Shown here one piece after another: positions 1 through 39,594 of a DNA stretch of 64,000 nucleotides. Every line of letters starts with the position of its first letter. Position 1 is the first letter of the stretch. The notes under the pieces were generated by a model that had not been told where the DNA came from, did no database searches, and saw only the letters and a list, made by a program, of their open reading frames with translations. The position numbers and the translations under genes were made by a program. The stretch lies in the NCBI RefSeq assembly GCF_054482595.1, contig NZ_CM137008.1; one strand, given 5' to 3'.

Positions 1-2781
1 AATGTCAAAAATTTCCATACGTTGGCGCTTCTGCTGCCGCTCCAGTAGCTTCAGCTTTTCCTGGTTTTGCTTTTGTTCTTCGATCGATTGTGCCAGTCTG
101 GCTTCTCGCTTCAACGACTTGATTTGCATTTTGGTATCGCGTAATGCTTCTTCCGCCGCAAAGATCATGTCTTCAGCCCATTTTTCCAGCTTATCTCTTT
201 CCGCTTCAAAAAGGACATTGTTCTGCTCCAAAACTTCCGCAAGCCTGGCGTCAATTTGCCTGTTCTTGAGTAAGATCAAGTCATCAGGTAATGCATCTAA
301 ACTTGCCGAATTATCCAGCTTTTCGTTGGTTATTGCAGACAAGTTGAACAGACGTTTACAAGCCTCACCATCTACCACACGGCCGCTGTCAGTTTTCGCG
401 GTAAAGACTAAAAATTGCTGCCGGTTAAACGCATCAACAGTAAGCAAATTTAGTGTTAACCACCCTGATAGCCCTTTCAGCTGCTCAGCCACCGAGACTT
501 TCGTTGTGTGGTTACTGTAATCGAAGATGACTTCAGCTGTTTTCGTCTCCTGGGCTTTGGCTCCCTCAATGACGTACTCACCCAGCGGATGATTGATCCG
601 ATATGCAAAACTGTGGTGATCCTGCATTTGTAACGCACTATTTTGCCTGCCATCTTTGCGCAACAGCTGATACTGCCCCACAGGCAGTTCATTGACTGAC
701 TCACGTAAAGTAAAACGATGATGCTCATGATCAAAATCAGCATATTGTTTGAGCTGCTGACAGGTAACGGCCCAAAACCAACGACCGACTTTATCCAGAC
801 GCTCCCGAGCTTCATCAAGCCTTATTTTAAGGATATCGTGAATATCTTCATCAAAATGCTCAAGCAACTGTTCCTGCGTCTTCTGCATCTTGAGATTGAT
901 TTCATCTTCCAGCTCTTTCTGCAACCTTTCAAAAGCCAGCTCTATCTCCTCGGGGGTACGGCATGACTCATAAATTGACTGGATCCTTTTTTCAAAATCC
1001 ACTCCATTTTCTATGCTGCCAAGCACACTATCCGATGCACCAAACACGCCATCAAACAGGCTGAACTTTTCAGTTAAGAGTTCAAGAACTCGTTGATCGG
1101 CCTGGTTTCGCTGATTGAGGAAGTTAATAACAACCACATCAAACTTTTGCCCGTATCGGTGACAACGCCCAATACGCTGTTCAATGCGTTGTGGATTCCA
1201 GGGTAAATCGTAATTGATCAGTAGCGAACAAAATTGCAGGTTCACCCCTTCAGCTGCAGCTTCTGTAGCTATCATGATTTCAGCATGATCTTTGAAGTGG
1301 TCGATCAAAGCCGAGCGTTTATCAATTTGCGCCGACCCGGTAATACGAGAAGATCCCTGATATTCCTCGCGCCATTGCTGGTAGATCTTGTTTGCCTGCG
1401 GTGTATTGTTTGTGCCACTAAAGGTTACTACTTTCCCCTGGTAGCCATTGTTTTCCAGAAAATGTGCAAGATACTGTTGAGTTCGCATTGACTCCGTGAA
1501 GATGATGACTTTTTTTGCAGCCCCCATTTCGGCAAGCTGTGCAAAACCTTGCTCCAGGCCAGAAAGCAACTCTTTTGATTTGGTATCAGTGCCAATCTGT
1601 TCTGCTTTGACAATGAGTGATTCCAGCTCATTGATTTCTGCCTGAAGCGCGTCTGAATCGACAACTTTGCACTCGGTATCTAAAGCCACTGATTCGGCAT
1701 CTTCCACGATGTCATCTTCAAGATCGTCATCCATTATGATCTGTTGGATGATGTTCATATCATCTTCAACGATACCTTCCAGCTTTAACCTTTCTAAACG
1801 ACTCTTAAGGATCTGCAAGTTATTCAATACAGCTTTCGTACTTGAGGAAAGTAGCTTTCTGAGAATAAGCCCCGTCAGATGCCGGTGTCGTTTTGGTAAG
1901 GCATAGCTATCCTCACGTTCAAGCAATTTTTGTACGCGTTCATAAAGATCCTGCTCCTGTTCGCTCGGATAGAAAGGAATAGTGATCGCTTTACGTTCTG
2001 TATACTTGATGTACTCCAGCACATTCTTGCGTAAAGTTCGTTTGATAAAACGCGACAATCGCCCCTTCAACTCCGCAATATCGCTATCTGCCTGCATATA
2101 TTGCTTTCTGAACGCTTTAACTTCGCCGAAGGTATGTTCATCTATAAGCGTCGACATGCCATACAGTTCCATTAACGAATTCTGTAAAGGCGTTGCGGTC
2201 AGTAGTAATTTTTTCCGCCCATCAAGCGCACGCTTTAACGCTTGCCCCATTTTGTTACTTTCTCGATGAGCATTACGCAGTTTATGGGCTTCGTCGATAA
2301 CAACCAGATCCCACATTTCAGCCACCAATTTTTCTTCTAACCGAGCAGCATAGTGGTATGACATGATAGTGATCGATTTATTATTTAAGGGATTATGGAT
2401 CCCTTCTTTTTGAAGCTGGCTATACGTTTTCGCGTCCAACACCTGAGAAGGTAGATTGAACTTTTCCTGTAACTCGCTCGCCCATTGGCGACGCAGTGAA
2501 GCAGGACAAATGATCAACAGTTTACGTTTTCTTTCAGCCCACAACTGGCAAAGCACTAACCCCGCTTCAATGGTTTTACCTAAACCAACTTCATCGGCAA
2601 GCACAACACCTTTGCTTAGCGGATTTTCAATAGCAAAAAGAGCCGCCTCAATTTGATGAGGATTTAGATCTACGCTTGCATCAAACAGCGATTGAGACAG
2701 ACGGTCCACCCCATTGTTTGAATGGAGAATGGAAAGTTCATGCGCAAAATATTTCGCATGATAAGGTGTTGTACCAATCAT
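1..2781 (-). CDS. SNF2-family helicase (N-terminal ~927 aa; gene runs off window start)
   Basis: Minus-strand ORF from ATG at 2781 with an in-frame TGA just upstream (2830-2832), read through to position 1 without a stop. Translated motifs: LADEVGLGKT (Walker A), VIDEAHKLRN (DEAH box), DLPWNPQRIEQRIGRCHRYGQ (motif VI); K/E/Q-rich coiled-coil-like C-terminal part. Absent from the ORF track because no stop lies inside the window. Confidence 0.8.
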   Translation of the reverse strand, partial: MIGTTPYHAKYFAHELSILHSNNGVDRLSQSLFDASVDLNPHQIEAALFAIENPLSKGVVLADEVGLGKTIEAGLVLCQLWAERKRKLLIICPASLRRQWASELQEKFNLPSQVLDAKTYSQLQKEGIHNPLNNKSITIMSYHYAARLEEKLVAEMWDLVVIDEAHKLRNAHRESNKMGQALKRALDGRKKLLLTATPLQNSLMELYGMSTLIDEHTFGEVKAFRKQYMQADSDIAELKGRLSRFIKRTLRKNVLEYIKYTERKAITIPFYPSEQEQDLYERVQKLLEREDSYALPKRHRHLTGLILRKLLSSSTKAVLNNLQILKSRLERLKLEGIVEDDMNIIQQIIMDDDLEDDIVEDAESVALDTECKVVDSDALQAEINELESLIVKAEQIGTDTKSKELLSGLEQGFAQLAEMGAAKKVIIFTESMRTQQYLAHFLENNGYQGKVVTFSGTNNTPQANKIYQQWREEYQGSSRITGSAQIDKRSALIDHFKDHAEIMIATEAAAEGVNLQFCSLLINYDLPWNPQRIEQRIGRCHRYGQKFDVVVINFLNQRNQADQRVLELLTEKFSLFDGVFGASDSVLGSIENGVDFEKRIQSIYESCRTPEEIELAFERLQKELEDEINLKMQKTQEQLLEHFDEDIHDILKIRLDEARERLDKVGRWFWAVTCQQLKQYADFDHEHHRFTLRESVNELPVGQYQLLRKDGRQNSALQMQDHHSFAYRINHPLGEYVIEGAKAQETKTAEVIFDYSNHTTKVSVAEQLKGLSGWLTLNLLTVDAFNRQQFLVFTAKTDSGRVVDGEACKRLFNLSAITNEKLDNSASLDALPDDLILLKNRQIDARLAEVLEQNNVLFEAERDKLEKWAEDMIFAAEEALRDTKMQIKSLKREARLAQSIEEQKQNQEKLKLLERQQKRQRMEIFDI

Positions 2782-3433: not shown

Positions 3434-3580
3434 TTAACTGATATCGCTCACTTGATGCCGGATAAGTGTGTCGATTTGCAGCTGTGTACTCTTTTGTACA
3501 GCCAGAATGTGGCTGACTGAGGTGGAGCAGATAATGTCCCCGTTGACCACTTCCGGACGGGAGGCTGTGATTTCAGACAT
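3434..3580 (-). CDS. small hypothetical protein (48 aa)
   Basis: ATG at 3580 preceded by AAGGA; MSEITASRPEVVNGDII...; no recognisable family; below the ORF-track size cut-off. Confidence 0.2.
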   Translation of the reverse strand: MSEITASRPEVVNGDIICSTSVSHILAVQKSTQLQIDTLIRHQVSDIS

Positions 3581-3599: not shown

Positions 3600-3636
3600 A
3601 GATAAATGAAAACGCCAGCCCTGTTCAGGCTGGCGT
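3600..3636 (-). terminator. Rho-independent terminator-like hairpin
   Basis: GCCAGCC / GGCTGGC stem with 7-nt loop, followed on the minus strand by GTTTTCATTT. Confidence 0.45.
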
Positions 3637-3881
3637 CAGTGGAATGAAGTATGGTGAGTAATATTTATCGGTTCTGGTGCAGAAGCTGCAGTTGGCGCAG
3701 GGTACGGATACCCTCCCTGGCCTGTTCGATACAGGGCAACAGTGCTGCCGAATCCGTTTTATCCTCATCGTTGTCAAAGATAATTCCCGATTCGCAGTCG
3801 ATATTGTCCTGCAGCCACACAATCAGAATATCCAGCGCCGTTTCTGTGGTTAATGATTTCATCCTGTGTCTTTTGTCCTGG

Positions 3882-4370
3882 TTACCAGTTGAAAGTGGGT
3901 AAATCCTGCAGACATTCAGCACCGGCATCCAGATGAATGAGACTGACGCCATAACGCCGGATGAGTGTGACAACCAGACGGCGGAACGTTCTGGACAGCC
4001 CCAGGCGTTTAAGCCGCAGAACCGGGTATGACCACGCATCGGTACGTAACAGATATCCGCTACCTGTGAAATGAATCCATTCTGATTCGCCGGTGTCATT
4101 CGTCTGATTTGACAGCGAGTACAACCAGGCATTGTCCGTTTCCGTGATATGTGCGGTACTGCAGCGTATGCCGGTAAGGGCCGCAGATGGTGGCGTGCGC
4201 TCTGCTGATGTCCGGTCAGATTCATCAACAACACGAAGGGAGTAACCGTTATCGCAGACCACGTTAATCAGTTCAGCGAGAGTAACACCATCGACGTCAA
4301 CGACAATGCGCCCCATGTTCAGTGCCTGCACGTTAATGCTGTCGGCTTCCAGCGTCAGGGCCAGTTTCAT
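3882..4370 (-). CDS. YeeW-like protein of CP4-type prophage remnants
   Basis: ORF-track product ...[38 protein letters not shown]...; sits immediately after the CbtA-like toxin as in K-12 CP4-44 (recollection). Start taken at the MKLALT ATG. Confidence 0.55.
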
Positions 4371-4744
4371 TGTTTCGCCCACGGATGTTTACCCAGGGTA
4401 ATGTTATTTACCGTTCTGTAATTGTCGCGGGCCATCAGGCCGGTTGCCCGGCGGGCCCGGAGGATATCAATACTGTTTATTAACTGAGAACGAGTACAGA
4501 CGCTGAATCCCGGCTGGTCGGTACGCACCAGTGCGTATTTTTCAACGAGAAAGTTCACCGCATCACACAGTGAAATGCCTGCCTCAATATGCTGCTCAAT
4601 CACACGTTCATCAGCGAACGGTGTGTCATTCAGTGTGAGGCCGTAATGCTGGTCCAGCAGTCGGGTGAGCAGTGTCTGCCAGATGGTGACGGGAGACTGG
4701 CAATGCGATGCCTCCCGTACGTGTGTATCGGGTAATGTGTTCAT
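4367..4744 (-). CDS. cbtA: CbtA/YeeV-family type IV toxin (cytoskeleton-targeting)
   Basis: Start set at internal ATG 4744 ([14 protein letters not shown]...); near-identical over most of its length to K-12 CbtA as I recall it (...[52 protein letters not shown]...). The ORF-track N-extension is rejected. Confidence 0.85.
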
Positions 4745-4833
4745 ACTGAAGATTTTCCTGATATGCAGAGATGAAAAATGGAAAAGTGGCGTGGTGAAAG
4801 CACCAGGCCGGAGAAGAAGGTTATTCTGGAGAG

Positions 4834-5202
4834 TTACTTTTTCGTTTCGGGCGTCGGATAAACAGCCATATAAACGTAGCCACAACTGCCGAGGGTGTCG
4901 GCTTCGCAGGTCAGCCTTTTTGCATACAGCGTGACGGTATGCTGATGGCGGGGATTCAGTTCACCGCTGGTGAGCATGAGTTCCAGTTGTTTCATCAGCA
5001 GCGGAAAGGCCTGGTCCAGATGGTACGCATCCGCGTCGCTGAACCGGCCTCTGATACCGGCGCGGTCTGCAAGGTAATGCAACCGGTTACCCTCCTGCAC
5101 CAGACGTGCCCCAAAACAGGGCGTCACGGTGCAGGGCAGTCCCCACCAGGTGCGGTCGTTATTGTCGTCGGGAAGCGTTGTCCCGGGGAGTGTGTCTGAC
5201 AC
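4834..5202 (-). CDS. cbeA: CbeA/YeeU-family antitoxin
   Basis: 122-aa ORF immediately upstream of the toxin; [50 protein letters not shown]... matches the YeeU/YfjZ/YafW family. Confidence 0.85.
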
Positions 5203-5281
5203 GATAAAATCCTCACAGAAAATTGGTTAAGAATGGTCCGGTGGTGGCGATAATTCTGCTCTTCTGAATGCCCTTCCAGAC

Positions 5282-5503
5282 TCAGTTCAGGGTGACGCTC
5301 ATCAGCCGGACATACGGACCAAAACTGTCCTTACGGCGTTCTGCAAACACAGCCAGCACACCGGGAATATCCTGTACTTCACGGCCGGTATATGTATCCG
5401 TGCTACCGTGCCAGCGGTATTTACCGGTACAGAACGGAAAAAGACGGGATGCAGGATGCTGACGGTGAATACGCATGGCTTCACCACGGGTGATGATTTT
5501 CAT
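5282..5503 (-). CDS. YeeT/YpjJ-like DUF987 protein
   Basis: 73 aa; MKIITRGEAMRIHRQHPASRLFPFCTGKYRWHGSTDTYTGREVQDIPGVLAVFAERR; conserved partner upstream of cbeA. Confidence 0.75.
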   Translation of the reverse strand: MKIITRGEAMRIHRQHPASRLFPFCTGKYRWHGSTDTYTGREVQDIPGVLAVFAERRKDSFGPYVRLMSVTLN

Positions 5504-5589
5504 GAGAATAGTCCTCCTGAATGTGAAAGTAAGAAACAGCTGAGAAAGAGAAACTGAAGTGATATGAAGGTGATTGTGACGGTGACGGG

Positions 5590-6066
5590 TTAAAGCAGAC
5601 CGTGTTCGGCAAAGGAGAATACCTGGCTGCCACCGACTATCAGATGGTCCGGCACCCGGATATCCACCAGGGCCAGCGCCTGTACCAGACGTTCAGTGAT
5701 AAGCCGGTCTGCCTTACTGGGGGTGACTTCACCGGACGGGTGATTGTGCGCCAGCACCACGGCAGCGGCATTGTGGTACAGGGCACGTTTAATCACCTCC
5801 CGGGGATGGACTTCTGTGCGGTTGATGGTGCCTGTGAAGAGGGTTTCACCCGCAATCAGCTGATTCTGGTTGTTCAGATACAGCACCCGGAACTCTTCCC
5901 GCTCCAGTCCTGCCATGTTCAGAATCAGCCATTCCCGTGCCGCATGCGTGGAGGTGAAGGCCACGCCGGGTTCATGAAGATGGCGGTCCAGGGTTTTCAG
6001 GGCCCGCTGAATGAGGCTGCGCTCGCCGGGCGTCATCTCTCCGGGCAGAAAGGAAAGCTGTTGCAT
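5590..6066 (-). CDS. RadC-like JAB-domain protein (YeeS/YkfG/YfjY family)
   Basis: 158 aa with the JAMM-type motif ...VVLAHNHPSGEVTPSKADRLITERL... Confidence 0.85.
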   Translation of the reverse strand: MQQLSFLPGEMTPGERSLIQRALKTLDRHLHEPGVAFTSTHAAREWLILNMAGLEREEFRVLYLNNQNQLIAGETLFTGTINRTEVHPREVIKRALYHNAAAVVLAHNHPSGEVTPSKADRLITERLVQALALVDIRVPDHLIVGGSQVFSFAEHGLL

Positions 6067-6080
6067 TGTTCCGGCCCCTT

Positions 6081-6566
6081 TCAGTCAATGATGCGCATAA
6101 TGGCGTTGCATTCCGGATGTTGCAGGGCGTAATCCCGCAACCGATAATAATGGACCGTCATGGCATAACACTCCGTACGACAGGCATGATGACTGTACGT
6201 CATCAGACAGGCAGCAATGCCGGCGGCTTCCGGGCTCATTTCAGCGCGGTTACCGTTCATGGCATTGAACAGTACCCAGGTTTCTCCATCATCTTCATCC
6301 GGTTCGGGCGCCATAAATGCGCCGCCGTTATTCAGGGTGTACAGATTCCAGATACCACCGCAGTAGTCTTCACACAGACGGTCCATCCAGCCGAAGACAC
6401 GGGGCTCCAGGGTCACCCACTGTGGAATGAGGCCAAAGTGCTGCGGCCAGAAGCTGATGCGCTGTTCATCAGGGACGGGAGTGGCAACCAGTTGAGACTG
6501 GTTATTCCCTGATGCAGTAGTTACGGAAACAGAAGGTGTGGTGGAATTATGCGAAGAGGTTGTCAT
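6081..6566 (-). CDS. antirestriction protein (KlcA/ArdB-like; YfjX/YafX family)
   Basis: Start set at ATG 6566 (MTTSSHNSTTPS...); FWPQHFGLIPQWVTLEPRVFGWMDRLCEDYCGGIWNLYTLNNGGAFMAPE... is typical of CP4-type antirestriction proteins. Confidence 0.8.
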   Translation of the reverse strand: MTTSSHNSTTPSVSVTTASGNNQSQLVATPVPDEQRISFWPQHFGLIPQWVTLEPRVFGWMDRLCEDYCGGIWNLYTLNNGGAFMAPEPDEDDGETWVLFNAMNGNRAEMSPEAAGIAACLMTYSHHACRTECYAMTVHYYRLRDYALQHPECNAIMRIID

Positions 6567-6657
6567 GAGATTATTCCTTATAAAAAGCAAATGAATGGAA
6601 GAATGCCTGGGGACTGGTACAGACGTGAGTCAGGGCTGCACTTTCAGGGAAACAGCA

Positions 6658-7476
6658 TCAGCGCATGCTCTCCAGCAGCGTTTCTGCCATCACCCACAAT
6701 GCGCGGTTGAGCTTAATATCGGTGTCGATGCTGTGAATGGCACGGGTGTGGATACGTTTTCCTCTGGCACTGCGACCGGAAATTCCGCCTTTCAGCATAT
6801 TCTCCTGGATGGTCTGATAAGCACTCCACAGGTCCTTACCGTAATCCTCCCGGCGTCGTGGTGTCAGAATGTCGGCAGTGGTGACTGGCTGATGTTTGTC
6901 ACCATAACGGTAAGTCAGTGCCGCCTGTGCCAGCGCCTGGCGTGCCGGTGGCGGCAGGACCAGCGACTGCATGGCATCACGCTTCTCCTCTATCCGGTCA
7001 AAAACCCCCACCACCTCGTAAGCCCCTTCAATAACTTTCTCCACCACATTTCCCCGGTGCGGAACACGCACTTCCCCCAGAGACTGACCACAGACGCATC
7101 CGTTCTGGCAGACGAACCTGAAGTAACCCGGCAGCATCTGGTAGCTGGAGGTACCGTCATGAGAGTTGAGCAGAATAATTTCAGGGACATGTTCTCCGTT
7201 TATCTCTCCGGCCCGCCGCAGACGCAGCATATGTTTGGTGTATCCCCGGCGGCCCGGGTCGCGCACACGGGTCTGGCAGGCGAAGAACGGCTGAAAGCCT
7301 TCCCGCTGCAGACTTTCCAGCACGGTGATGGTGGGGATATACGTATAGCGTTCACTGCGGGAGGTATGCCGGTCTTCCCCAAAAATACCGGGTACATAGT
7401 GCATCAGTTCTTCGTGTGTCAGCGGACGGTCACGGCGTATCTGATTCGCATAACCAAAACGACTGGCTAATTGCAT
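6658..7476 (-). CDS. DUF932-family protein (YfjQ/YafZ-like)
   Basis: 272-aa ORF; family assigned by recollection of CP4-6/CP4-57 gene content. Confidence 0.75.
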   Translation of the reverse strand: MQLASRFGYANQIRRDRPLTHEELMHYVPGIFGEDRHTSRSERYTYIPTITVLESLQREGFQPFFACQTRVRDPGRRGYTKHMLRLRRAGEINGEHVPEIILLNSHDGTSSYQMLPGYFRFVCQNGCVCGQSLGEVRVPHRGNVVEKVIEGAYEVVGVFDRIEEKRDAMQSLVLPPPARQALAQAALTYRYGDKHQPVTTADILTPRRREDYGKDLWSAYQTIQENMLKGGISGRSARGKRIHTRAIHSIDTDIKLNRALWVMAETLLESMR

Positions 7477-7565
7477 ACTTTGCTCCTTATGAATGAATTA
7501 GCGGTATAAACGAAAAGGCCGCGTCTCCCGGAGAAGACGCGGCCTGATGGATGAAATGAAGACGT

Positions 7566-7775
7566 TTATTGCCTGAGAATTCCCTCACTGGCGAGATACG
7601 AATTTAGCTGTTTTCCGGCATCAGGTTCAAAATTCCAGCACCGCCAGCGTAGCTGCCCTTCGGCATTGCGGATAACCAGCCGGAAATGCGTTCCCTGGTC
7701 ATCTTCAATAAGCACATTGCGGTAAGCTGTTGTGACGGCAACCGCCTGTTCGCGTGAGAAAGGGCCTTCGGGCAA
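7566..7775 (-). CDS. DUF905 protein (YkfF/YfjT-like)
   Basis: 69 aa; [54 protein letters not shown] resembles K-12 YkfF. Confidence 0.7.
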
Positions 7776-7804
7776 TAAAACAGGGTGGCAGTCCTACATA
7801 CCGG

Positions 7805-8482
7805 CTATTTTCCGATAAATTCAACGCTGGCGCCGGTGGCATTACCGTCAGCACCAACCGTGACGGTCACTTTGTCGTACGCACGGTCTTCAGGATTGAA
7901 TACTTCAAACTCAACCTTATTGCCTTTTACTTCGTAAGAGCCAAAATCAGCGGTTTCTGTTGTTTCCTCGTCATATTCCCGGGCGTATGCCTGCCGGGCA
8001 GCCTGCAGGACGGAATCTTTATCAATAGTGGTCGTCTGTTTCGGGGAAAAACCGGCAAGTGATGTGACAAATTTCGGACAGACCTTCAGCATATCACCGC
8101 GGGTGAATTCCATTCGTACACCAAATGCCTGTAAAACGGACACATCACGCTCTGCTATGGAGTGAACGGCTTTTTTGACCATTTCCGGCGCCTGTCCGAT
8201 TTCCACCTCAACAGCCCTGAATCCCGTCTGCTGATTACACATTTGTGATGTGGGGATCAGGTTACCGTTAATACTGATACGGCTGCCCAGGAGCGTCTGT
8301 ACACCATTCGGGCATCCCTGCATCAGGCCGGTAATACCAATCGTGCCATTTTTCAGCATTACCAGCGCCTGACCATCTTCCGTCATGGTCTGACACCAGC
8401 CGTTTTTGACAGCCCAGTTGCCGGCGGAGGCGGAGAATGATGCCACAGTGAACAGCAGGGGAAAAAGAGCTCTGGTATTCAT
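7805..8482 (-). CDS. secreted protein of unknown function (signal-peptide bearing)
   Basis: Start set at ATG 8482 (MNTRALFPLLFTVASFSASA...), a typical Sec signal; the longer ORF-track N-extension is rejected. Confidence 0.5.
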   Translation of the reverse strand: MNTRALFPLLFTVASFSASAGNWAVKNGWCQTMTEDGQALVMLKNGTIGITGLMQGCPNGVQTLLGSRISINGNLIPTSQMCNQQTGFRAVEVEIGQAPEMVKKAVHSIAERDVSVLQAFGVRMEFTRGDMLKVCPKFVTSLAGFSPKQTTTIDKDSVLQAARQAYAREYDEETTETADFGSYEVKGNKVEFEVFNPEDRAYDKVTVTVGADGNATGASVEFIGK

Positions 8483-8629
8483 GACTGACCTCTGAAATGA
8501 ACGTACGGTGTTATTGATAATGATGGAAGGTATGCAGTGACTGTTCAGGGAATGACGTAGCCGTATATTTAGTTTTCTGTTCAACATATTGTCTCCATAC
8601 CTGTCGGGACGGCTTTGGCAGGCCGGCAA

Positions 8630-9310
8630 TCACAGGTTAAAGGTGTTGATAAGTTTATGGATGAAAGAGAAATGTGGCAGGGCGGAGATAAAACGCTCTT
8701 CAGCGACCAGACTGTGGATGTGGCCTCTCCGTTCAAACCGTTCTGATGTCAGGCTGACTGATTTGATATCTGCCAGAGGAAAGACCTGCAGTTTTCCCTT
8801 CTGTAACGCGATCAGATACCAGCTACCGCTGTAATAAATGAGCCGGCAGGGCTCCAGTGACGGATACCATCGCTCAGTCATCAGAGAGATGTGGATACAC
8901 TGTCTTATTGCCAGGATGAGTTGCGAGAAACACTCGGGGAACGTTGCAGTGATATCCGGCGCCGGTAGCCAGATAAGGCAGGGAGAGGGCTCCTGGTTGT
9001 CGGTAAGACAGGTTATCAGTCGTCCGTTCCGGAGCGGAAGTATCCGTGCGATCCCGGTATTCTGTATAAAAGAAAGCATTTCAGGGATCGCACCTGGGCT
9101 GCTCTGTCGTCTGAGGCTGTACCTGCCATTTCTGTACTCTAAATCCAGGTGAACCAGACGCTGATGAAAATCGCGCTGTAAAGTACGTTCTGTAACGCCA
9201 AATTCATCTGACAGTGTTTTTAGTGACAGAGATTCTCCGGCCATCAGTCGGCTGATAATGAGTGATAAGCGAACCGCCAGGCGATCATGCCGGGAACGAT
9301 TATCAGACAT
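8630..9310 (-). CDS. WYL-domain transcriptional regulator (YfjR-like, HTH N-terminus)
   Basis: 226 aa; N-terminal HTH (LKTLSDEFGVTERTLQRDF), C-terminal region with YYSGSWYLIA, consistent with a WYL domain. Confidence 0.7.
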   Translation of the reverse strand: MSDNRSRHDRLAVRLSLIISRLMAGESLSLKTLSDEFGVTERTLQRDFHQRLVHLDLEYRNGRYSLRRQSSPGAIPEMLSFIQNTGIARILPLRNGRLITCLTDNQEPSPCLIWLPAPDITATFPECFSQLILAIRQCIHISLMTERWYPSLEPCRLIYYSGSWYLIALQKGKLQVFPLADIKSVSLTSERFERRGHIHSLVAEERFISALPHFSFIHKLINTFNL

Positions 9311-9512
9311 AGATGTGCACTCCGTAAGAAAACATCTTTTATTTCATGATGTTATTATGCATCATGATGTTGAAAGGATGTGTCGCATCCGGATAATCAG
9401 GAATAAAATGCAGCAGAAAAAATATTCTTTTAATTATCTGATTTTTAAGCATGATTTCATAAAAAGAAGAATGCTCGTTAATCCAGCGACACATCCTGTC
9501 GGCGTGAGTGTG

Positions 9513-10397
9513 TCAGAACAGACGCTCCCACAGTGTGATCAGCAGGTGGATAATGCGGTCCCGGGCTTTACGCAGAAGCTGTAACATCCAGGCCGGAAAA
9601 CTGAAACGGGCAACGGCGACGTCAAAACTTTTCCCGATGGTTTCACCAAAAGTCTGTTGTGCGTGTTTCTGGGCCTGTTCAGAGCGGTTTTCTCCCCGGA
9701 TATGTGAATACACCGCGCTGGTTGCCTGTGGTGGCAGTGCGTGGATCATCAGCGACACAAACGCCGGAAGGTTCCAGCCGACAGGTGCAGCAACGGAGAG
9801 TACCGGAAATGATGAAGGGAACAGGGTTGCCACCCGGGCTGTCACCGTCGCCAGTGAGAGCGCCTGCTGACGGGACGGGCATTTTTCTGTGGCATTCCAT
9901 TCTTCAGCAGGAAACACGCGATCGGCATGGCTGAGAACAAACAGAAAACGCGAGGGATCTGCGCCTTCATTCAGTAAAAACTGATGCATGGTAATGTCGG
10001 CGGCATACGCGCGTTCATCTGCCCGCAGGATCCAGATAATCAAATCCACTTCCGGCAGTAACTGACGGTAAAGCGCCCGGTATTCCTGATCATGTTGCGG
10101 CGTCTCTCCAATGCCGGGCAGATCGACCAGCGTCATTCTGCGTTCACCGATCTGCAGGGTAAGACGATGAGCCTGGCGGGTGCAGCCGTTCAGGGGATGT
10201 GTGGCACAGATATGGGACTGAAAAATAGCATTACACAGGCTACTTTTGCCGGTGCCGGATTTACCCATAATGCCAATCACGGGTTCGTAATGAATAACGC
10301 TGTGGAGATGTTCAAGAATTTTCTGACGAATTTCTTCAGGAAGAAACGTCAGATATGATTTCACTTGTGCGGAGAGGGAAGAATGGCTGAATGACAT
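9513..10397 (-). CDS. GTPase of YfjP/YkfA family (50S-ribosome-binding GTPase-like)
   Basis: 294 aa with P-loop GIMGKSGTGKSS and G3 DLPGIGE. Confidence 0.8.
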   Translation of the reverse strand: MSFSHSSLSAQVKSYLTFLPEEIRQKILEHLHSVIHYEPVIGIMGKSGTGKSSLCNAIFQSHICATHPLNGCTRQAHRLTLQIGERRMTLVDLPGIGETPQHDQEYRALYRQLLPEVDLIIWILRADERAYAADITMHQFLLNEGADPSRFLFVLSHADRVFPAEEWNATEKCPSRQQALSLATVTARVATLFPSSFPVLSVAAPVGWNLPAFVSLMIHALPPQATSAVYSHIRGENRSEQAQKHAQQTFGETIGKSFDVAVARFSFPAWMLQLLRKARDRIIHLLITLWERLF

Positions 10398-10581
10398 ACC
10401 GGTATCCTGTTGATTTCACTGAACCGGATCACACTAATCCGGTTTATCATTCAGGTAATATGGACGTGAAAAATGATGGAATGTCTGAATTACGGATATT
10501 ATTGTTAAAGTGTAATGGAGTATGAAGTGAGTTTTTCAGAACGGGAACTAATGACATACTGCGGTTTCAGGAGATGAGAGG

Positions 10582-11712
10582 ATGACCGGACGTAAAAACA
10601 AATGCGTCAGAAAAAATTGTAACAATCAGGTTTTCTCAGTAAAAATGGCAGTGGAGAAAAGACTGTGCAGAAAACATTATGAGAGGTTTTGTGAGCTCAA
10701 AAAAAGAAGAGAGCAAAATCCTGTTCACAGATTAAATGAAGCATTGCCAAGAAAGATAAAAGGACCCAAAAGTAAGAAAAAATTAGTAAAAGAAAGAGAA
10801 ATCATTAACAGCAGGAAGAAACATAAACAGGAGCAGGGACCATCGCTGGTTGAACTTAATAAAAAAGTTCGTGAGATACTGAAAACTCCGGCATGGAGAA
10901 CGCTGGAAACGAGAATTCGAAGAAACGGTATCACATTTAAATCAAAAGCAGAGTTAGATGTACTTTCTGAACTTTATGCAATTTATTCATGGGTTTCATA
11001 TTGCAAACGGAGCGATAATTATTCTGTGTGGTTTTTGAATTGTCCGGATGTAAATATAAATCTTCATGTGTGCGAATGCAGGTCTTCTGAAAGCGATTGT
11101 TATCTACCATCCCGTTTTATTATTCTTCCAGCTCCATTAAGGCAAAAAGTAAAAAGAAAATACCCTGCTAATTCGTCTGGAGTGTCAGGATATAGTGATT
11201 CAAAAAGTCTTTATAAGACTGTTTTGTCTGTTTGTGGTGGGAAAAGAGAAACCGAATTGTTCTTTTATTCACTGCCAGTAAAGACTAATCATCATCCTTA
11301 CTGGATTAAAAGTGGTGTGGTTAAAAGATTTCCGCCTATTTTTGGCTTGTTGTTTTATGAACAGGAAAGGTTAACAGGAGGTGTTTTTCGTTATGTGTTG
11401 ATAAAGTTTTATAATGCTTTTAAGGAGAATTTGTTTTTTGTTGAGATTATCTCGTGCTGTTTTCTTGTTGAGTTTTTTCATGATATTGATTCATTTTTTA
11501 TAAATCAACGATTAAGTAAGTTGGAAATTTTTATAGATAAGTGGAGGGAGGGTAAAGAAATCTGGATAAAAGCATATCTACAACTGATACATAATGCATT
11601 GGGAATAACTGAAACAGAAAAACTCGTCAATCTATATAATTCATTTTTTACTGATAAAGTGGTTCTCTGGGATGAATCAGTAAAAAAAGTTAAGTGGATT
11701 TATGAGAAATAG
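10582..11712 (+). CDS. hypothetical protein, Cys-rich basic N-terminus, strongly AT-rich gene
   Basis: 376-aa ORF with GGA RBS-like purines upstream; N-terminal C-x5-C...C-x-K-H-x4-C cluster and K/R-rich stretch; no recognised domain; divergent from the GTPase gene. Confidence 0.5.
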   Translation: MTGRKNKCVRKNCNNQVFSVKMAVEKRLCRKHYERFCELKKRREQNPVHRLNEALPRKIKGPKSKKKLVKEREIINSRKKHKQEQGPSLVELNKKVREILKTPAWRTLETRIRRNGITFKSKAELDVLSELYAIYSWVSYCKRSDNYSVWFLNCPDVNINLHVCECRSSESDCYLPSRFIILPAPLRQKVKRKYPANSSGVSGYSDSKSLYKTVLSVCGGKRETELFFYSLPVKTNHHPYWIKSGVVKRFPPIFGLLFYEQERLTGGVFRYVLIKFYNAFKENLFFVEIISCCFLVEFFHDIDSFFINQRLSKLEIFIDKWREGKEIWIKAYLQLIHNALGITETEKLVNLYNSFFTDKVVLWDESVKKVKWIYEK

Positions 11713-12252
11713 CACCATTTAACTGAAAGCTACCATAACGTCTTTTTGATCACACGCATGATAATGCGTCTCATTTAAATTTCGTTTTTTGGGTCATGGA
11801 AATTTTCCGAACATCAGTGATAATGAGGGTTTTGTTGTTTTTGTTTCTGCAATGTTTGAGGGCTGTTCCTGGAGACGATTCGTTGCTTGTGAGCAAGTGG
11901 TGGTCCGCTTTACTGGACGAGTTTTGCATTTGTTGAGTGGTGAAATGGAAGTAAAAAGAGCCCCTTTCTGGCAATGACTGAAAAAGTCAGTAGCGTGTAA
12001 CAGTAAAAACTAACATAAAGTGATTATCGTATGATTATGACAATAACTTATAACTTTTATGAAAAGAACAACAGAAACTACGAAGCCATAACAGATTCCT
12101 GAGACCATGTTTTCTGAGGTAGAGAAAATAATTCAAGAGTAAACCAGTTTGTTTTTTGGTCAGTAAAGAACCATGCCTGATGTGAAAACGGGTAATCAAC
12201 ATTCAGTCTGCATGGATGTTTGGAAGAGTTGAGAATGTCGGTATGATACTAT

Positions 12253-12360
12253 ATACACGTATTTTTACTAAGCATTTCAGTAAGTGTTATACACGTATTT
12301 TTACTAAGCATTTCAGTAAGTGTTATACACGTATTTTCATAAACACTTCTACAAGTGTTT
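12253..12360. repeat. tandem direct repeats (2 perfect 36-bp units plus a degenerate third)
   Basis: ATACACGTATTTTTACTAAGCATTTCAGTAAGTGTT at 12253-12288 and 12289-12324, then a diverged copy beginning ATACACGTATTTTCATAAACACTT. Confidence 0.85.
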
Positions 12361-13228
12361 TCGTTAAGCATTGCTATACACATCCAGTTTAGTAAATCTT
12401 TACGTTAACTAAATCAGTTTAATGCTGCTGTAAAACCTTTCTGCTTCAGCAATCAATCTGCTATTCGATTTTACTGATGTTACGTTTAACCTTTCCTGAT
12501 ATTTCGAGTTTCGACGTTAGCATGAGAAAAGTATCTTTACGCTAAATCAACCCGAACTTTCCTGAAGTAATCTGACGTTCTTTTCGATGTGCTTACGACG
12601 ATTCTGTTAAACGACTTTCTGGATGTTTTGATAACAATCAGATTTAGGCATTAACGATTCCTGACGTTTTTCTTTTCCGTGTAAGGTCATTGTTTTCGTC
12701 ATGATGTGACTCTTCTTGCATTGCGAAAGTGTGATGAACGGTTTTGGTGTTTTGATTCAGATGAAGTTTACGTTATCGATGGTTAATCGTTTTTATGGTG
12801 CGTAGTGAAACGTAACGCTTTCAGGAAGGGAAAATCGATTCTGATGGGGATGATCGTGTAACGGCGTTATCTGTAAACAGGTTTTAAACATGTCATTCGC
12901 ATCCGTGATTAAGTTGTGTGATTAAGCTGTAGGTTTTGGCGTTGTTGTTGATTTGCATTACCAGGAAGCGTTCTGGTTGCGTTTCTGGTGTTTTGTTTGA
13001 ATGTTCTGTGGATCCTTTTCCCTTCTGACTTTTCTCGTTGTCCATGTCGTTTTTAAATCCATTCGCTGTTCTTGAGTGTTTTTACCCTGTGTGTAGGATT
13101 ATCTTTTTGTTCCGTTTCAATCACTCTTAATCAGAAAGTTGTAGCATTGCTCAATGCCGGATGCCGTAAAGTTTTACCGCGGTGATTAATGATGTGAAGT
13201 CAATCCAAATCAACGGAGATCTCTCATC

Positions 13229-13960
13229 ATGAATCAACCAATACACAATGCTTACTGGTTATCCCGTTTTGAAAGTATTCTCAACGGTGCCCTGGCGCAA
13301 CACCGTGCCGTCTCGTTAATCCGGGTGGATTTACGTTTCCCTGAGTATATGCCTGCCACCATCATGGATACCGATTTAGATTCAGCGGTGATTTCTCGTT
13401 TTTTTGCATCCCTGAAAGCAAAAATTCAGGCTTACCAGCGGAAAAAACGACGTGCCAACAAGCGTGTGCGTGCAACCACTCTGCGTTATTTCTGGTGTCG
13501 GGAGTTTGGCAAGGAAAAAGGCAGGAAACATTATCACGTGATATTACTGCTCAACAAAGATACCTGGTGCTCGCCAGGGGATTTCACCGTTCCTTCTTCG
13601 CTGGCGACGCTGATCCAACTGGCATGGTGCAGTGCTCTGCATCTTGAGCCCTGGCAGGGTAATGGACTGGTTCACTTTTCCAGGCGGACGCCTTTCCGTA
13701 AACCGACATCATCTGATGCTCGCCCTTCTTCCGATGATACGCCTGTGCCTGGTGGATGTTCTGATACCCGGAAGGATTCTGACAAAAAATCTGGTGGATC
13801 CGCTGTTCTCTGGGTCAAGCGTGGTGATGTGGAAGCGATGCAGAAAGCCATGGAGAGAGCCCGTTATCTCGTGAAGTATGAGACGAAGCAGCATGACGGT
13901 TCTGGTCAACGTAATTATGGTTGCAGTCGTGGGCTGGGGCGTCTACTGGATGGCAGGTGA
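13229..13960 (+). CDS. YagK/YfjJ-family protein (inovirus Gp2-like family of CP4 islands)
   Basis: 243 aa; MNQPIHNAYWLSRFESILNGAL...HYHVILLLNKD; paralogous to the ORF at 19172-19738. Confidence 0.7.
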   Translation: MNQPIHNAYWLSRFESILNGALAQHRAVSLIRVDLRFPEYMPATIMDTDLDSAVISRFFASLKAKIQAYQRKKRRANKRVRATTLRYFWCREFGKEKGRKHYHVILLLNKDTWCSPGDFTVPSSLATLIQLAWCSALHLEPWQGNGLVHFSRRTPFRKPTSSDARPSSDDTPVPGGCSDTRKDSDKKSGGSAVLWVKRGDVEAMQKAMERARYLVKYETKQHDGSGQRNYGCSRGLGRLLDGR

Positions 13961-14287: not shown

Positions 14288-15166
14288 GTGAAACTGAAAA
14301 TGCAGGATTTGAGGCTGTTTAATATTGTGTTCGAGAGCGATCCTGGCTGGATACTGGATTTCTCTAACCGCACCTTGTCTGCTTTTTTCGATGAAGAATT
14401 GAACATTGATATTGATGATGAACGTTATCAGAAAGAGGGGACGTCAAAAGCCAAACGAGTTAGATGCTTGCTGAAACAGGTTGATCGTGAGACCGCTCTG
14501 CGGGTTCTTGGTGCGCTCTGGCAGTATAAAACGGAATCCATGCCTGAACAGGCTGAACAAAGCCGTAATGACTATCTTGCACTGATTTCCCGCTTAGAAA
14601 ACGCTGACACCGATGAAGCCAAAGGCGTTAAGCCTGTCCAGGCATGGCATGGTGTTGACTGGCATTCACTTATCGCTGAAATGAACGAGATGAAATCTCT
14701 GCCGCCACATCCACGTGGTTTTCGGTTTGAAGCCTGGCTTGCTGAACTGTTCAGTATCTTTAAGCTTGCTCCCCGTTCGTCTTTCCGAAATACAGGCGAA
14801 CAGATTGACGGAAGTTTCCGACTGAATGATGAATTTTACCTGATGGAGGCAAAGTGGCATCAGAAAAGAACGTCGGCTGCCGACCTCCATGTATTTGAAG
14901 GAAAGCTCAGTACCAAGGCAACCTGGACACGCGGTGTTTTTATCAGTTGGATGGGCTTTACGCCTGAAGGCCTGACGGCTTTTGGTAAAGGGAAGCGGGT
15001 TATCTGTGTCAGTGGTTATGATCTTTACCACTCACTGAATCATAGGATCCCTTTACCCGACCTTCTGGATGCTAAAACCCGGCACGCGGCTGAAACGGGA
15101 GAGCCCTATGCTGAGTTCGACCGACTATATGCACTGAAAGACAAACAGTTCGGCACGCTGAAATAA
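14288..15166 (+). CDS. Mrr-like (PD-(D/E)xK) restriction-endonuclease-domain protein with unrelated N-terminal domain
   Basis: GTG 14288 preceded by AGGAGG (alternative ATG 14300). C-terminal GEQIDGSF...[10 protein letters not shown]...[11 protein letters not shown] parallels the Mrr catalytic region (GDGGIDG...VQAKRW...RGVFITTSGFT) as I recall it. Confidence 0.6.
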
Positions 15167-28512: not shown

Positions 28513-28563
28513 TCACCTCGCCAGAACCTACCAGAATATGATGTTGGTGGTAATGACTCCAAC

Positions 28564-29067
28564 TTATTGATAGTGTTTTATGTTCAGATAATGCCCGATG
28601 ACTTTGTCATGCAGCTCCACCGATTTTGAGAACGACAGCGACTTCCGTCCCAGCCGTGCCAGGTGCTGCCTCAGATTCAGGTTATGCCGCTCAATTCGCT
28701 GCGTATATCGCTTGCTGATTACGTGCAGCTTTCCCTTCAGGCGGGATTCATACAGCGGCCAGCCATCCGTCATCCATATCACCACGTCAAAGGGTGACAG
28801 CAGGCTCATAAGACGCCCCAGCGTCGCCATAGTGCGTTCACCGAATACGTGCGCAACAACCGTCTTCCGGAGACTGTCATACGCGTAAAACAGCCAGCGC
28901 TGGCGCGATTTAGCCCCGACATAGCCCCACTGTTCGTCCATTTCCGCGCAGACGATGACGTCACTGCCCGGTTGTATGCGCGAGGTTACCGACTGCGGCC
29001 TGAGTTTTTTAAGTGACGTAAAATCGTGTTGAGGCCAACGCCCATAATGCGGGCTGTTGCCCGGCAT
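28564..29067 (-). CDS. insB: IS1 InsB
   Basis: 167-aa ORF; the functional transposase would be the InsAB' frameshift fusion. Confidence 0.9.
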
Positions 29068-29261
29068 CCAACGCCATTCATGGCCATATCAATGATTTTC
29101 TGGTGCGTACCGGGTTGAGAAGCGGTGTAAGTGAACTGCAGTTGCCATGTTTTACGGCAGTGAGAGCAGAGATAGCGCTGATGTCCGGCGGTGCTTTTGC
29201 CGTTACGCACCACCCCGTCAGTAGCTGAACAGGAGGGACAGCTGATAGAAACAGAAGCCAC
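28986..29261 (-). CDS. insA: IS1 InsA
   Basis: 91 aa; [40 protein letters not shown]... Confidence 0.9.
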
Positions 29262-29396
29262 TGGAGCACCTCAAAAACACCATCATACACTAAATCAGTA
29301 AGTTGGCAGCATCACCCGCAGGACTTAGGTGCCGTAGCCTTAGTACCAAAAGGCGATACCTCTGGCGCTGACCGTAAAGGTCTTTTCAATCGTTCA

Positions 29397-29843
29397 TTGT
29401 TCAAATATGACCAGGAAAAAGATATTTATATTTGCCCGATGGGTGAAGAACTTCAGAACCGATTTACGATGGTTGAGGATGGTTTAGAACAGCAAATGTA
29501 CTTTAACAATATTGCCTGTCGCGATTGCAGTCAGCGGTCAAGGTGCACCACATCAAAACGCGATCCGAGGCGTATAAAGCGCTGGGTTCATGAAGCAGAA
29601 ATGGAAGACATGCAAGCCAGGCTTAATGCATCGCCACAAACAGCTGTCGTGCGAAAGCAAACGGTAGAGCATCCGTTCGGGACAATTAAGATGTGGATGG
29701 GAGCGACTCACTTCCTGACGCAACGGTTTAAAAACGTCAGCACAGAAATCAGTCTGCATGTACTGGCTTATAACCTGAAGAGGATGATGTCCATCTGGGG
29801 GGCCGAAGGATTGGCCATTAAGCTGCGAGAACGATGCAGCTAG
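29397..29843 (+). pseudogene. DDE transposase C-terminal fragment (IS5/IS1182-like), truncated at the IS1 junction
   Basis: ...HPFGTIKMWMGATHFLTQRFKNVSTEISLHVLAYNLKRMMSI is a typical DDE transposase C-terminus; the N-terminal half is absent. Confidence 0.5.
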
Positions 29844-30167
29844 CGGCAGTGGCCGCTTTAACTCCTAATAACTGGCCATTAGTACTCCATATCAAGCCAC
29901 AAAGTCTCGTTTTGCCTCAACATACAAATCACTGCGAATACAGCCCATATCAGGAATATCTTGCATCCCTGCTGGTGTTAGTCCTCAGATACTGAAAAAA
30001 CCGAGTTTTTACACAGCCTGGGCACGAAGCGGACCGCCTGAAGCGCAGCAAGGTCTGCTTTGAACTCACAGCGAAGAGCAGAATATACCGGGAGATATCC
30101 TCTTTCATGAGTTGGCAGCCTCTCTCGCATAATATCGAAAACACGGGAGAGGCCGTTACAGCCGCCG

Positions 30168-30932
30168 TTAGTTAGCACGGAATTCCTGGACGGTATCCCA
30201 TGCCACCTGCTGCAGCGCTTTGGCGGTTTGCTCGGTCATATCGCTGTCGGCAGGCAGTGCGCCGCCTATCGGTGACTGGTCATACAGCGTGGCGAACAGC
30301 ACGCTGGCAGCCAGATAGGTTCCCGCCAGCGAGGGGTGATTTCCATCGCTATGATACAGATTGATTTCAGGATGCGTCTTAATTGCGTTACTGAAGGCCA
30401 GCCCGACCGGCGCGACGTATCCCCCGGTTTTACTGGCTATATTCAGATAGGCTTTCTCCAGTTTTTCAGTTTGCTCGGGTTTATCCTTGCTGGCCCAGGT
30501 CATAAAATAAACCACACGCGAGCCCTCTTTGTGAGCCATATCTGCCATCTTGACGGCGGACTCCGTGAAATAGTGACGCGAATCTTTTTTAGCGGAAAAA
30601 GGCTCTGTTGAATTCCCCTGAAATATCACCACGTCCCATTTTTGCAGCGTATTCTGGAATTCAAGATTCGGAAGGTGCCAGCCTAAACGTCCAGAAGAAA
30701 TGGTGATTCCCCGGAACATATAGTCTTTAGCGCCATTCGGTAACAGCGAACGGCTGAGATCGCGCAGTCGGGTATTTATATTATTGTTATAATGTGTATA
30801 TGAATTTCCGTAGAGCGCAATGGATTTATTGACTCCGCTCAGTTTATCCTGCGGTTTGGCTGCAATAATCGTATCGGCCTGCGCGTCGACCATCAGCGCC
30901 AGTCCTGCCAGCAACAACATGATTTTTTTCAT
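30168..30932 (-). CDS. secreted SGNH/GDSL-type hydrolase (esterase-like)
   Basis: Start set at ATG 30932 (MKKIMLLLAGLALMVDAQA signal); family assignment tentative. Confidence 0.5.
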   Translation of the reverse strand: MKKIMLLLAGLALMVDAQADTIIAAKPQDKLSGVNKSIALYGNSYTHYNNNINTRLRDLSRSLLPNGAKDYMFRGITISSGRLGWHLPNLEFQNTLQKWDVVIFQGNSTEPFSAKKDSRHYFTESAVKMADMAHKEGSRVVYFMTWASKDKPEQTEKLEKAYLNIASKTGGYVAPVGLAFSNAIKTHPEINLYHSDGNHPSLAGTYLAASVLFATLYDQSPIGGALPADSDMTEQTAKALQQVAWDTVQEFRAN

Positions 30933-30942
30933 TATTCTTTCC

Positions 30943-31992: not shown

Positions 31993-32410
31993 GCTGTTCT
32001 TCCCCTTTAAAAAATAAATATGTTCGCCCTTGATGCAGGATTAAATAGTTGTTATCAGGCGCCATTAATTTTTAGTTACATTAATGCAGAGCGAATACGG
32101 GAATTGCGTTTTCTCATAATAAAATGTGATTTTACGCACATAAAATAGGGCTTAATGGCTGGCGTTGTTATTTGTGAAGATTTCATTGAAAATAAATAAT
32201 AGCGATTTAATTGATTCTCTCCGAACTGAGATATAAATGGCGAATTTATGTTAATCTCATCACGTTTTTCATATTGTGATCCCCGGAACATATGGGAAAT
32301 GCATATTCCCCTGTTTACGCAGTGAGAATTGCTCCAGAATACTCGTTACGCAGTTAAATTTGATTTGAATGATATGCTGTTATCAGCGACGTACGTCACA
32401 GGAGTTTATA

Positions 32411-33781: not shown

Positions 33782-33834
33782 TCCAGAGCCATTCGCTTCC
33801 TGCCGAAAGCAGGTGTGCCGACAGGAAGCGGTCA

Positions 33835-34722: not shown

Positions 34723-35005
34723 AATTGTCGTCCTTACACACTACGGATAAAAAGATACTATATTCAGTATAGAGAATAACCTTATCACATAATAATGCTA
34801 TGCTATAGCCTTCCGTAAAGTGATTGACATATTTCCTGTTATGAGATCATGCGCACAAACCCCAGCGGGAAAAGCAATTTCTCATAGCTCACATTACCCT
34901 GATTCGATCATGATTTCATTACGGCATCAGTCTCTGAATTTATAGAGAATTAGGCGATCTAAATATAACTAGCCGTCATATATAGGAAAACAAAAGGACG
35001 ATCTC

Positions 35006-36382: not shown

Positions 36383-36469
36383 AGGACGTGTCGTCAGTGC
36401 GATGCCATTAAATCCAGAGAGCCAGGCGAGAGTACTTTGTTGTCAACATCAGTTAGCCGGACGTAAGTT

Positions 36470-38164: not shown

Positions 38165-38280
38165 TAAGCAGTCTGTAGCGGGAAGATCTTGATACCGTTG
38201 GTAACGGCGGTATCAATTCCGTAAAAGCCGCATGGCCCGTATCTGTTCCGAGTGTATCCGGTGTTATGGTAGCGCAATCG

Positions 38281-38700: not shown

Positions 38701-38820
38701 AGGTAGCCCGCAGAAGTATACTGAACGCTATAAAGAATGTAGTGGAGATGCTGGTTGTGAACAGCAGATCCGTAAGGATATGGCGAAAGAATCGGCGGAA
38801 AATGTTCTTAAGTTGAAGTC

Positions 38821-39588: not shown

Positions 39589-39594
39589 GACACA

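Follow-up and report, generated by a model that had tools for sequence, protein, structure and literature searches.

Our analyses showed that the window, i.e., the whole 64,000-nucleotide stretch of E. coli DNA that was analyzed (contig NZ_CM137008.1 of assembly GCF_054482595.1), very probably carries an intact CbtA/CbeA (YeeV/YeeU) type IV toxin–antitoxin pair of the cbtA/cbeA subtype within its canonical module. Its function is assigned by homology to K-12, and its most likely role would be to stabilize or otherwise benefit the mobile element that carries it. The identity of the genes, their intactness and synteny, the purifying selection on them and their frequency in the population were established in this work.

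The toxin and antitoxin genes

The preliminary description of this DNA had proposed an intact cbtA–cbeA-like pair at 4367–5202, and two adjacent minus-strand frames with full-length Pfam matches bear this out. The toxin gene (4367–4744, minus strand) encodes 125 aa, starts with ATG and has an AGGA Shine-Dalgarno motif upstream. Immediately upstream on the same strand lies the antitoxin gene (4834–5202, minus strand), which encodes 122 aa and starts with GTG after a GAGGA Shine-Dalgarno motif. Neither frame contains an internal stop. The Pfam profile CbtA_toxin (PF06755) matched the toxin over its full length (profile positions 1–112 of 112, E = 3.1e-63), as CbeA_antitoxin (PF06154) did with the antitoxin (E = 1.1e-54); at these values, the pair is far beyond chance. 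In a 100%-identical genome, PGAP names the toxin WP_072649755.1. A mechanically called open reading frame had put the toxin start at a TTG at 4885; this was rejected as a spurious extension, which would overlap the antitoxin gene. From the alignment with K-12 CbtA and the Pfam coverage beginning at profile position 1, we place the start at 4744. The solved YeeU structures 2H28 and 2INW matched the antitoxin by sequence (E ~3e-77), and a comparison of the toxin with solved structures gave no match. Read from the sequence, the toxin stop overlaps the ATG of the DUF5983 gene by four bases (ATGA), which suggests translational coupling.

Growth and shape toxicity and its neutralization have been demonstrated for the K-12 homologs (PMC5371832, PMC5624674), and we transfer toxicity, protein targets and antitoxin mechanism from these K-12 experiments to the window pair. 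By this analogy, the toxin would bind FtsZ, for which it has the determinant F65, and block cell division; MreB is probably bound as well, with a block of elongation. The co-transcribed antitoxin would counteract the toxin without binding it, through binding and bundling of FtsZ and MreB filaments. K-12 CbeA is reported to neutralize in this manner, by FtsZ/MreB bundling and not by toxin binding (cited in PMC5371832). The antitoxin gene precedes the toxin gene, which has a separate Shine-Dalgarno motif behind the 89-nt, hairpin-bearing spacer. Paralogous antitoxins cross-neutralize, and the operon is not autoregulated (PMC5371832).

Comparison with known systems

The preliminary description had named the K-12 paralogs as the sequences to align, and both proteins turned out to be closest to CbtA and CbeA. 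The toxin shares 86% identity with CbtA (CP4-44), 58% with YkfI (CP4-6) and 65% with YpjF (CP4-57), and the corresponding values for the antitoxin are 92% with CbeA, 63% with YafW and 67% with YfjZ. In K-12, the spacer measures 88 nt in cbeA–cbtA and 20 nt in the two other pairs (PMC5371832). From the identities, and from the window spacer of 89 nt that matches the 88 nt and not the 20 nt, we assign the pair to the cbtA/cbeA subtype.

With the K-12 CP4-44 locus, the window shares the Pfam families, the gene order, the GTG start of the antitoxin and the 88/89-nt spacer with its hairpin; YeeS and YeeT lie upstream, and DUF5983 (yeeW) lies downstream with an overlapping start. Within the toxin, the differences are mostly found at the N-terminus, where residues 2–27 represent another haplotype, whereas residues 28–125 are nearly identical to K-12 CbtA. 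The window toxin is also one residue longer. In K-12, yeeW is a 64-aa truncation and yeeP is a pseudogene, whereas the window DUF5983 gene is full length with 162 aa and its GTPase gene is intact. CP4-44 furthermore carries flu (Ag43) and yeeR as cargo, neither of which occurs in the window, and the window module occupies another chromosomal site, adjoining nanC/nanM.

The two other K-12 pairs, YkfI/YafW of CP4-6 and YpjF/YfjZ of CP4-57, agree with the window pair in their families, in C15 and F65 of the toxin and in the order GTPase–DUF932–antirestriction–RadC–DUF987–antitoxin–toxin. In contrast, their proteins show only 58–67% identity, their toxins (109–113 aa) and antitoxins (105 aa) are shorter, and their 20-nt spacers have no hairpin. 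In CP4-6 and CP4-57, DUF932 directly follows the GTPase, whereas in the window it comes after a regulator and cargo genes. The module on IncHI1/IncHI2 plasmids of Klebsiella, Enterobacter and Citrobacter has the same gene order and the same 4-base overlap of toxin stop and DUF5983 start. It differs by its location on a plasmid instead of a chromosome, by a DNA identity of ~68% and by a 49-nt spacer without hairpin.

The surrounding module

According to the preliminary description, every gene between 3.9 and 10.4 kb should be uninterrupted. Reading of the frames, coverage of the Pfam profiles and agreement with the PGAP annotation of an identical chromosome confirmed this. Positions 3600–10600 are 100% identical to the chromosome of E. 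coli YZLc23-1, and our gene coordinates are exactly those of its NCBI PGAP annotation. The same 7-kb block recurs at 100% identity in many sequenced E. coli chromosomes from many unrelated isolates, where its genes are annotated as intact.

All genes and hairpins of the module are on the minus strand and are given here from high to low coordinates. The block begins with a 294-aa MMR_HSR1-type GTPase gene, YkfA/YfjP/YeeP-like (9513–10397; Pfam PF01926, E = 2.6e-15; 35–36% identity to YkfA and YfjP), followed by a gene for a YfjR-like HTH and WYL transcriptional regulator of 226 aa (8630–9310; Pfam HTH_11 and WYL; 43% to K-12 YfjR). The next gene (7805–8482; PGAP WP_001097301.1) encodes a hypothetical protein of 225 aa with a signal-peptide-like N-terminus. 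It matched no Pfam or NCBIfam model, and tblastn searches of K-12 CP4-44, CP4-6 and CP4-57 gave no match. As these three elements hold no counterpart, the protein can be regarded as variable cargo. A 69-aa DUF905 gene with a TTG start (7566–7775; Pfam PF06006, E = 5.7e-31) is separated from the DUF932 gene by a strong terminator-like hairpin (7516–7545) with a 13-bp stem, nine GC pairs and a T-rich tail. The 272-aa DUF932 gene (6658–7476; Pfam PF06067, E = 1.1e-52; 74% to YafZ and YfjQ), the 161-aa Antirestriction-family gene (6081–6566; Pfam PF03230, E = 7.6e-37; 65–66% to K-12 YafX and LfgA), the YeeS-like RadC-type JAB-domain gene of 158 aa (5590–6066; Pfam PF04002, E = 5.1e-45; 98% to K-12 YeeS) and the YeeT-like DUF987 gene of 73 aa (5282–5503; Pfam PF06174, E = 2.7e-39; 93% to K-12 YeeT) lead up to the toxin–antitoxin pair.

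Downstream of the pair follow the full-length DUF5983 gene (3882–4370, 162 aa), which matched both Pfam DUF5983_N and DUF5983, and a 65-aa DUF957 open reading frame (3665–3862; PGAP WP_001327226.1). The latter gave no match against the current Pfam library; it is syntenic in plasmid and chromosomal copies. The AntiFam entry ANF00264, which adjoins DUF5983, is discussed in a 2026 preprint. A second terminator-like hairpin (3611–3637; 11-bp stem, seven GC pairs, T-rich tail) lies behind DUF957. The stretch from DUF932 to DUF957 probably forms one transcription unit, bracketed by the terminator-like hairpins at 7516–7545 and 3611–3637. To the left, the module thus reaches beyond the 3.9–10.4 kb block to DUF957, its last intact gene; the end gene DUF4942 is not intact. 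Full-length module copies end with a 280-aa DUF4942 gene, as in an Enterobacter asburiae plasmid copy in which it is intact. In the window, only a 5' remnant of ~48 codons is left (3437–3580, minus strand; partial pseudogene in PGAP), and a tblastn search with the 280-aa DUF4942 protein aligned only residues 1–49, at 74% identity. To the right of the block, the preliminary description had noted DNA shattered by insertion sequences. Broken copies of IS256, IS3, IS110, IS91 and IS66 in the annotation of near-identical genomes agree with this.

Intergenic spacer and probable cassette exchange

The spacer between antitoxin and toxin genes (4745–4833, minus strand) comprises 89 nt, including the AGGA Shine-Dalgarno motif of the toxin. 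Across nine E. coli copies its mean pairwise distance was 0.076, compared with a synonymous pS of 0.19–0.24 in the flanking genes, i.e., the spacer is roughly three times more conserved than the synonymous sites next to it. Local folding and the nine-copy alignment revealed a hairpin, GGCCTGGTG-YTTT-CACCACGCC, at 4788–4809 (minus strand). Its stems are unchanged in the nine copies, with variation confined to the loop; it occurs once in the window, and the K-12 cbeA–cbtA spacer carries the same hairpin. With a folding energy of −11.6 kcal/mol it gave z = −4.65, and none of 200 shuffled sequences folded equally well. This significance is limited to the local hairpin, as the spacer folded in full gave no significant result (z = −1.1). 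The hairpin had no match among the Rfam families; a permissive Rfam scan of the spacer region produced a chance-level match only (E = 0.15). At gathering thresholds, the block was free of Rfam matches; the sole match was to the ALIL pseudoknot, within an IS3 element (54663–54779). The spacer hairpin fails a simple terminator scan, and the T-run directly after the stem is lost in three copies. No covariation support could be obtained, given that the E. coli stems are invariant and that the element is missing from the diverged 49-nt and 20-nt spacers. The hairpin may represent either a structured RNA or a DNA or protein-binding site.

In the alignment with strain SM107, the first 12.3 kb of the window show 105 differing positions, made up of 104 mismatches and one gap, but the next 12.7 kb show a single one. 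Ninety-seven of the 105 fall within 4000–5250, a stretch that comprises the antitoxin and toxin genes with their spacer and the 5' part of DUF5983. Judged from this distribution, 4000–5250 is a recombination patch of ~1.2 kb between otherwise identical islands. In a further genome, a CbtA-type toxin is paired with a YafW-type antitoxin. Together with the ~1.2-kb patch, this pairing suggests that the toxin–antitoxin cassette is shuffled between paralogous islands. The following reading is conceivable, if rather doubtful: the E. coli-specific hairpin might be a cis-regulatory RNA, for example a partial terminator or a site of RNA processing or stability, and might in this way set the toxin:antitoxin ratio of a system without autoregulation; antitoxin, spacer, toxin and 5' DUF5983 might be exchanged by recombination as one cassette between paralogous islands, diversifying the MreB-facing N-terminus of the toxin.

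The toxin N-terminus and MreB binding

K-12 CbtA has two independent binding targets, the H6/H7 loop of FtsZ and the flat face of MreB; in this protein, F65S abolishes FtsZ binding, whereas R15C abolishes MreB binding and gives filaments (PMC5624674). FtsZ binding by CbtA, YkfI and YpjF alike requires F65 (PMC5624674), which was present without exception in the window toxin, the K-12 paralogs and 46 cluster representatives. The MreB-binding determinant R15, however, is absent from the window toxin, which has C15 instead. Given the effect of R15C in K-12, dual FtsZ/MreB targeting is thus not guaranteed for the window allele. It might be a division-only toxin that binds FtsZ but not MreB, and that would consequently produce filaments instead of lemon-shaped cells. 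The specific loss of MreB binding in K-12 R15C speaks for this, as does the window backbone, which is otherwise near K-12 CbtA. We nevertheless consider it unlikely. C15 belongs to a whole alternative N-terminal haplotype, which is the majority form among the cluster representatives. Of 47 full-length sequences, i.e., the window toxin and the 46 cluster representatives, 33 have C and 14 have R at position 15; two N-terminal haplotypes occur, and that of the window (D6-T7-H8-V9-R10-E11, with C15) is the commoner one among the representatives. Within this sample, the window allele is therefore typical, and K-12 with its R15 belongs to the minority. Furthermore, YkfI and YpjF natively have C15 and yet block elongation, and replacing it by C15R leaves them unaffected (PMC5624674), from which we assume that MreB determinants depend on context. 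We largely rejected the idea that C15 marks an allele without MreB binding, as it is the majority natural state; nor is it family-defining, since YkfI and YpjF carry it. A toxin that acts on FtsZ and probably also on MreB hence stays our preferred reading.

Selection, decay and recent spread

The preliminary description had read the intact frames as a sign of selection and not of decay, and substitution patterns point the same way. We computed dN/dS by the Nei–Gojobori method for window genes against their K-12 or SM107 counterparts. Values were 0.05–0.34 for the toxin, antitoxin, DUF987, RadC, antirestriction, DUF932, DUF905 and DUF5983 genes, with 0.05–0.10 for the RadC-like and 0.23–0.28 for the DUF5983 gene; for the GTPase gene, dN/dS was 0.41 in a saturated comparison. 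A comparison of eight E. coli copies per gene gave a pN/pS of 0.19 (toxin) and 0.20 (antitoxin). Within the toxin, the core (residues 28–104) gave 0.09 and the faster-evolving N-terminal part (residues 1–27) 0.51. These values support purifying selection on the block, which probably acts on the mobile element rather than on the host. Paralogous antitoxins elsewhere in the genome may cross-neutralize the toxin, and selection on this particular antitoxin could thus be weak.

Alternatively, the pair might be intact merely because the island arrived or spread recently; it would then be effectively neutral or silent and bound to decay like the IS-rich DNA to its right, and its intactness would be no evidence of selection. 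The complete identity of the 7-kb block across many unrelated isolates would fit such a recent spread. Decay is seen in copies elsewhere: an O157:H7 genome has a frameshift in cbtA, DUF987 has an internal stop in one copy, and DUF5983 is truncated in six of nine sampled copies, including K-12 yeeW. In the window itself, DUF4942 at the module end is truncated. Moreover, K-12 tolerates deletion of its antitoxin genes, which points to low toxin expression (PMC5371832). We still regard this explanation as quite improbable, as divergent copies (pS 0.19–0.24) keep open frames with pN/pS around 0.2, and 0.09 in the toxin core. Frames are even open in comparisons with the CP4-6 and CP4-57 paralogs, where dS is at least 1.4 and thus at or near saturation. 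The toxin is intact in eight of nine sampled CbtA-subtype copies and the CbeA-type antitoxin in all eight compared; the ninth copy (L011) has a YafW-type antitoxin, annotated as intact, and was left out of the CbeA-type comparison. The conservation of the spacer, about threefold above that of synonymous sites, likewise argues against it. Selective maintenance of the pair therefore remains the explanation that we favor.

Island context and distribution

The CbtA/CbeA module is already known; it is an ordinary, textbook element found in public annotated E. coli genomes. Of 5426 complete E. coli genomes, 4928 contained the pair at megablast sensitivity; copy number had a median of three and a maximum of 13, and 13,569 of its places were chromosomal and seven on plasmids. 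This is in line with a published survey, in which CbtA is variable and multi-copy and DUF5983 is always located downstream (PMC10790755). Beyond correct annotation, the significance of the window locus is small. Cassette-level recombination, the conserved spacer hairpin and the commonness of C15 offer small, testable leads for work on type IV toxin–antitoxin systems, and these three leads leave the identity of the element unchanged.

The toxin was found in one of 50,697 phage records, an unannotated 3.2-kb fragment, and in 66 plasmid records. In Klebsiella, Enterobacter and Citrobacter, conjugative IncHI plasmids carry the whole module in the order antirestriction–RadC–DUF987–YeeU–CbtA–DUF5983–DUF957(–DUF4942). 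As the module is nearly absent from phage records and carried on conjugative plasmids, its name 'CP4-type prophage' is a historical one; its behavior is that of a portable block belonging to integrative and conjugative elements.

The window represents an E. coli chromosomal island adjoining nanC/nanM, with the module at the distal end of the island. To the left of ~3123 follows a DrmD-like SNF2 gene (PADLOC DrmD, E = 2e-198), and genomes with the identical block carry other cargo at this place. The island also encodes an Mrr-like nuclease and dndB/dndC. That abortive-infection phage defence is the main role of the pair, in place of element stabilization, is highly improbable: the DISARM-type DrmD homolog, the Mrr-like nuclease and dndB/dndC share the island, the neighboring antirestriction gene ties the module to defence and counter-defence, and some type IV systems, e.g., AbiE, act as abortive-infection systems (cited in PMC5371832), but PADLOC has no model for the toxin, antitoxin, DUF5983, RadC, antirestriction or DUF932 proteins, literature searches gave no phage-defence report for CbtA/CbeA, and the antirestriction/RadC/DUF932 partners together with the IncHI context suggest establishment of a mobile element and not host defence. 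A classification of the pair as a defence system was rejected, as neither a PADLOC nor an NCBIfam model matches the toxin or the antitoxin.

Stabilization of, or benefit to, the carrier element hence remains the preferred role. No tRNA gene was found in the 64-kb window, and a search of the window for a direct repeat of the leuX tRNA 3' end as island boundary, allowing up to three mismatches, gave no hit. The part colinear with strain EC11 (approximately 10–60 kb of the window) has no annotated integrase there, and the island extends beyond the window. Within this region, positions 28539–39597 align in reverse orientation to EC11, and the alignment spans two flanking inverted IS1 copies. As these copies are included in the reversed alignment, the segment between them is inverted relative to EC11.

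Probable exchange of the cbtA/cbeA cassette

Over its first 25 kb, the window is nearly identical to the E. coli strain SM107, but 97 mismatches are clustered in 4000-5250. This cluster covers the cbeA antitoxin gene (4834-5202, minus strand), the 89-nt spacer, the cbtA toxin gene (4367-4744, minus strand) and the 5' part of the DUF5983 gene. From the distribution of mismatches in this alignment, 4000-5250 most probably is a recombination patch of about 1.2 kb, which would have swapped the allele of the toxin–antitoxin cassette. In L011, another genome that carries the antirestriction–RadC module around this cassette, an antitoxin of the type of YafW, the CbeA paralog of the K-12 YkfI/YafW pair, is found together with a CbtA-type toxin.

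The spacer between cbeA and cbtA contains a stable hairpin at 4788-4809 on the minus strand (ΔG −11.6 kcal/mol, z −4.65). Its stems are unchanged in nine E. coli copies, and conservation of the spacer is about three times that of the flanking synonymous sites. The hairpin was found neither in the Klebsiella/Enterobacter plasmid copies nor in ykfI-type spacers.

Left end of the module

DUF4942, usually the last gene of the module, is reduced in the window to its first ~48 codons (3437-3580, minus strand). DNA homology to both full-length modules compared, those of the genomes L006 and L011, ends at about 3456, and homology to the many genomes with an identical block starts at about 3123. Next to this remnant, the 65-aa open reading frame at 3665-3862 (minus strand) is annotated as DUF957, but the current Pfam library gave no match for it. 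A preprint from 2026 makes the case that the AntiFam entry ANF00264, which adjoins DUF5983 and cbtA, represents a genuine protein; ANF00264 may correspond to this 65-aa DUF957 reading frame.

Defense-type genes and mobile elements

At the left edge of the window, an SNF2 helicase gene is represented by its N-terminal 927 codons (1-2781, minus strand); its 3' end is located beyond that edge, and it matches the PADLOC model for DrmD of DISARM (E = 2e-198). Beyond this gene, strain SM107 has a DEAD/DEAH helicase and a DNA methyltransferase; in other genomes with an identical toxin–antitoxin block, the cargo at this position differs. An intact YagK/YfjJ-family (inovirus Gp2-like) gene (13229-13960, plus strand) and an intact Mrr_cat restriction endonuclease gene (14288-15166, plus strand) lie to the right of the GTPase block, before the IS256 fragments begin. 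The right end of the window (59725-62441, plus strand) holds a DNA phosphorothioation system, represented by dndB (E = 2e-140 for Pfam DndB) and a dndC-like PAPS-reductase gene. Related genomes carry a phosphorothioated-DNA-binding restriction endonuclease on the opposite side of the island.

Against strain EC11, the stretch 28539-39597 aligns in reverse orientation, and in SM107 its genes likewise stand in opposite order. It consists of a segment of about 9.6 kb, with genes for a malic enzyme, dcuC, a MurR/RpiR regulator, a fumarase/aspartase-family protein and a porin, and of two inverted IS1 copies that form its borders. The segment between the two IS1 copies is inverted. An ALIL pseudoknot at 54663-54779 (plus strand; Rfam RF01497, 116 bits) is the signal for programmed frameshifting in an intact element of the IS3 family.

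Two intact autotransporter genes, of 1165 aa (39595-43092, minus strand) and 895 aa (56187-58874, minus strand), sit amid IS fragments, the former within low-GC DNA (~39-43% GC). A 36-bp tandem repeat at 12216-12392, which in one frame reads as the peptide repeat YTRIFTKHFSKC, differs in copy number from SM107 and EC11.
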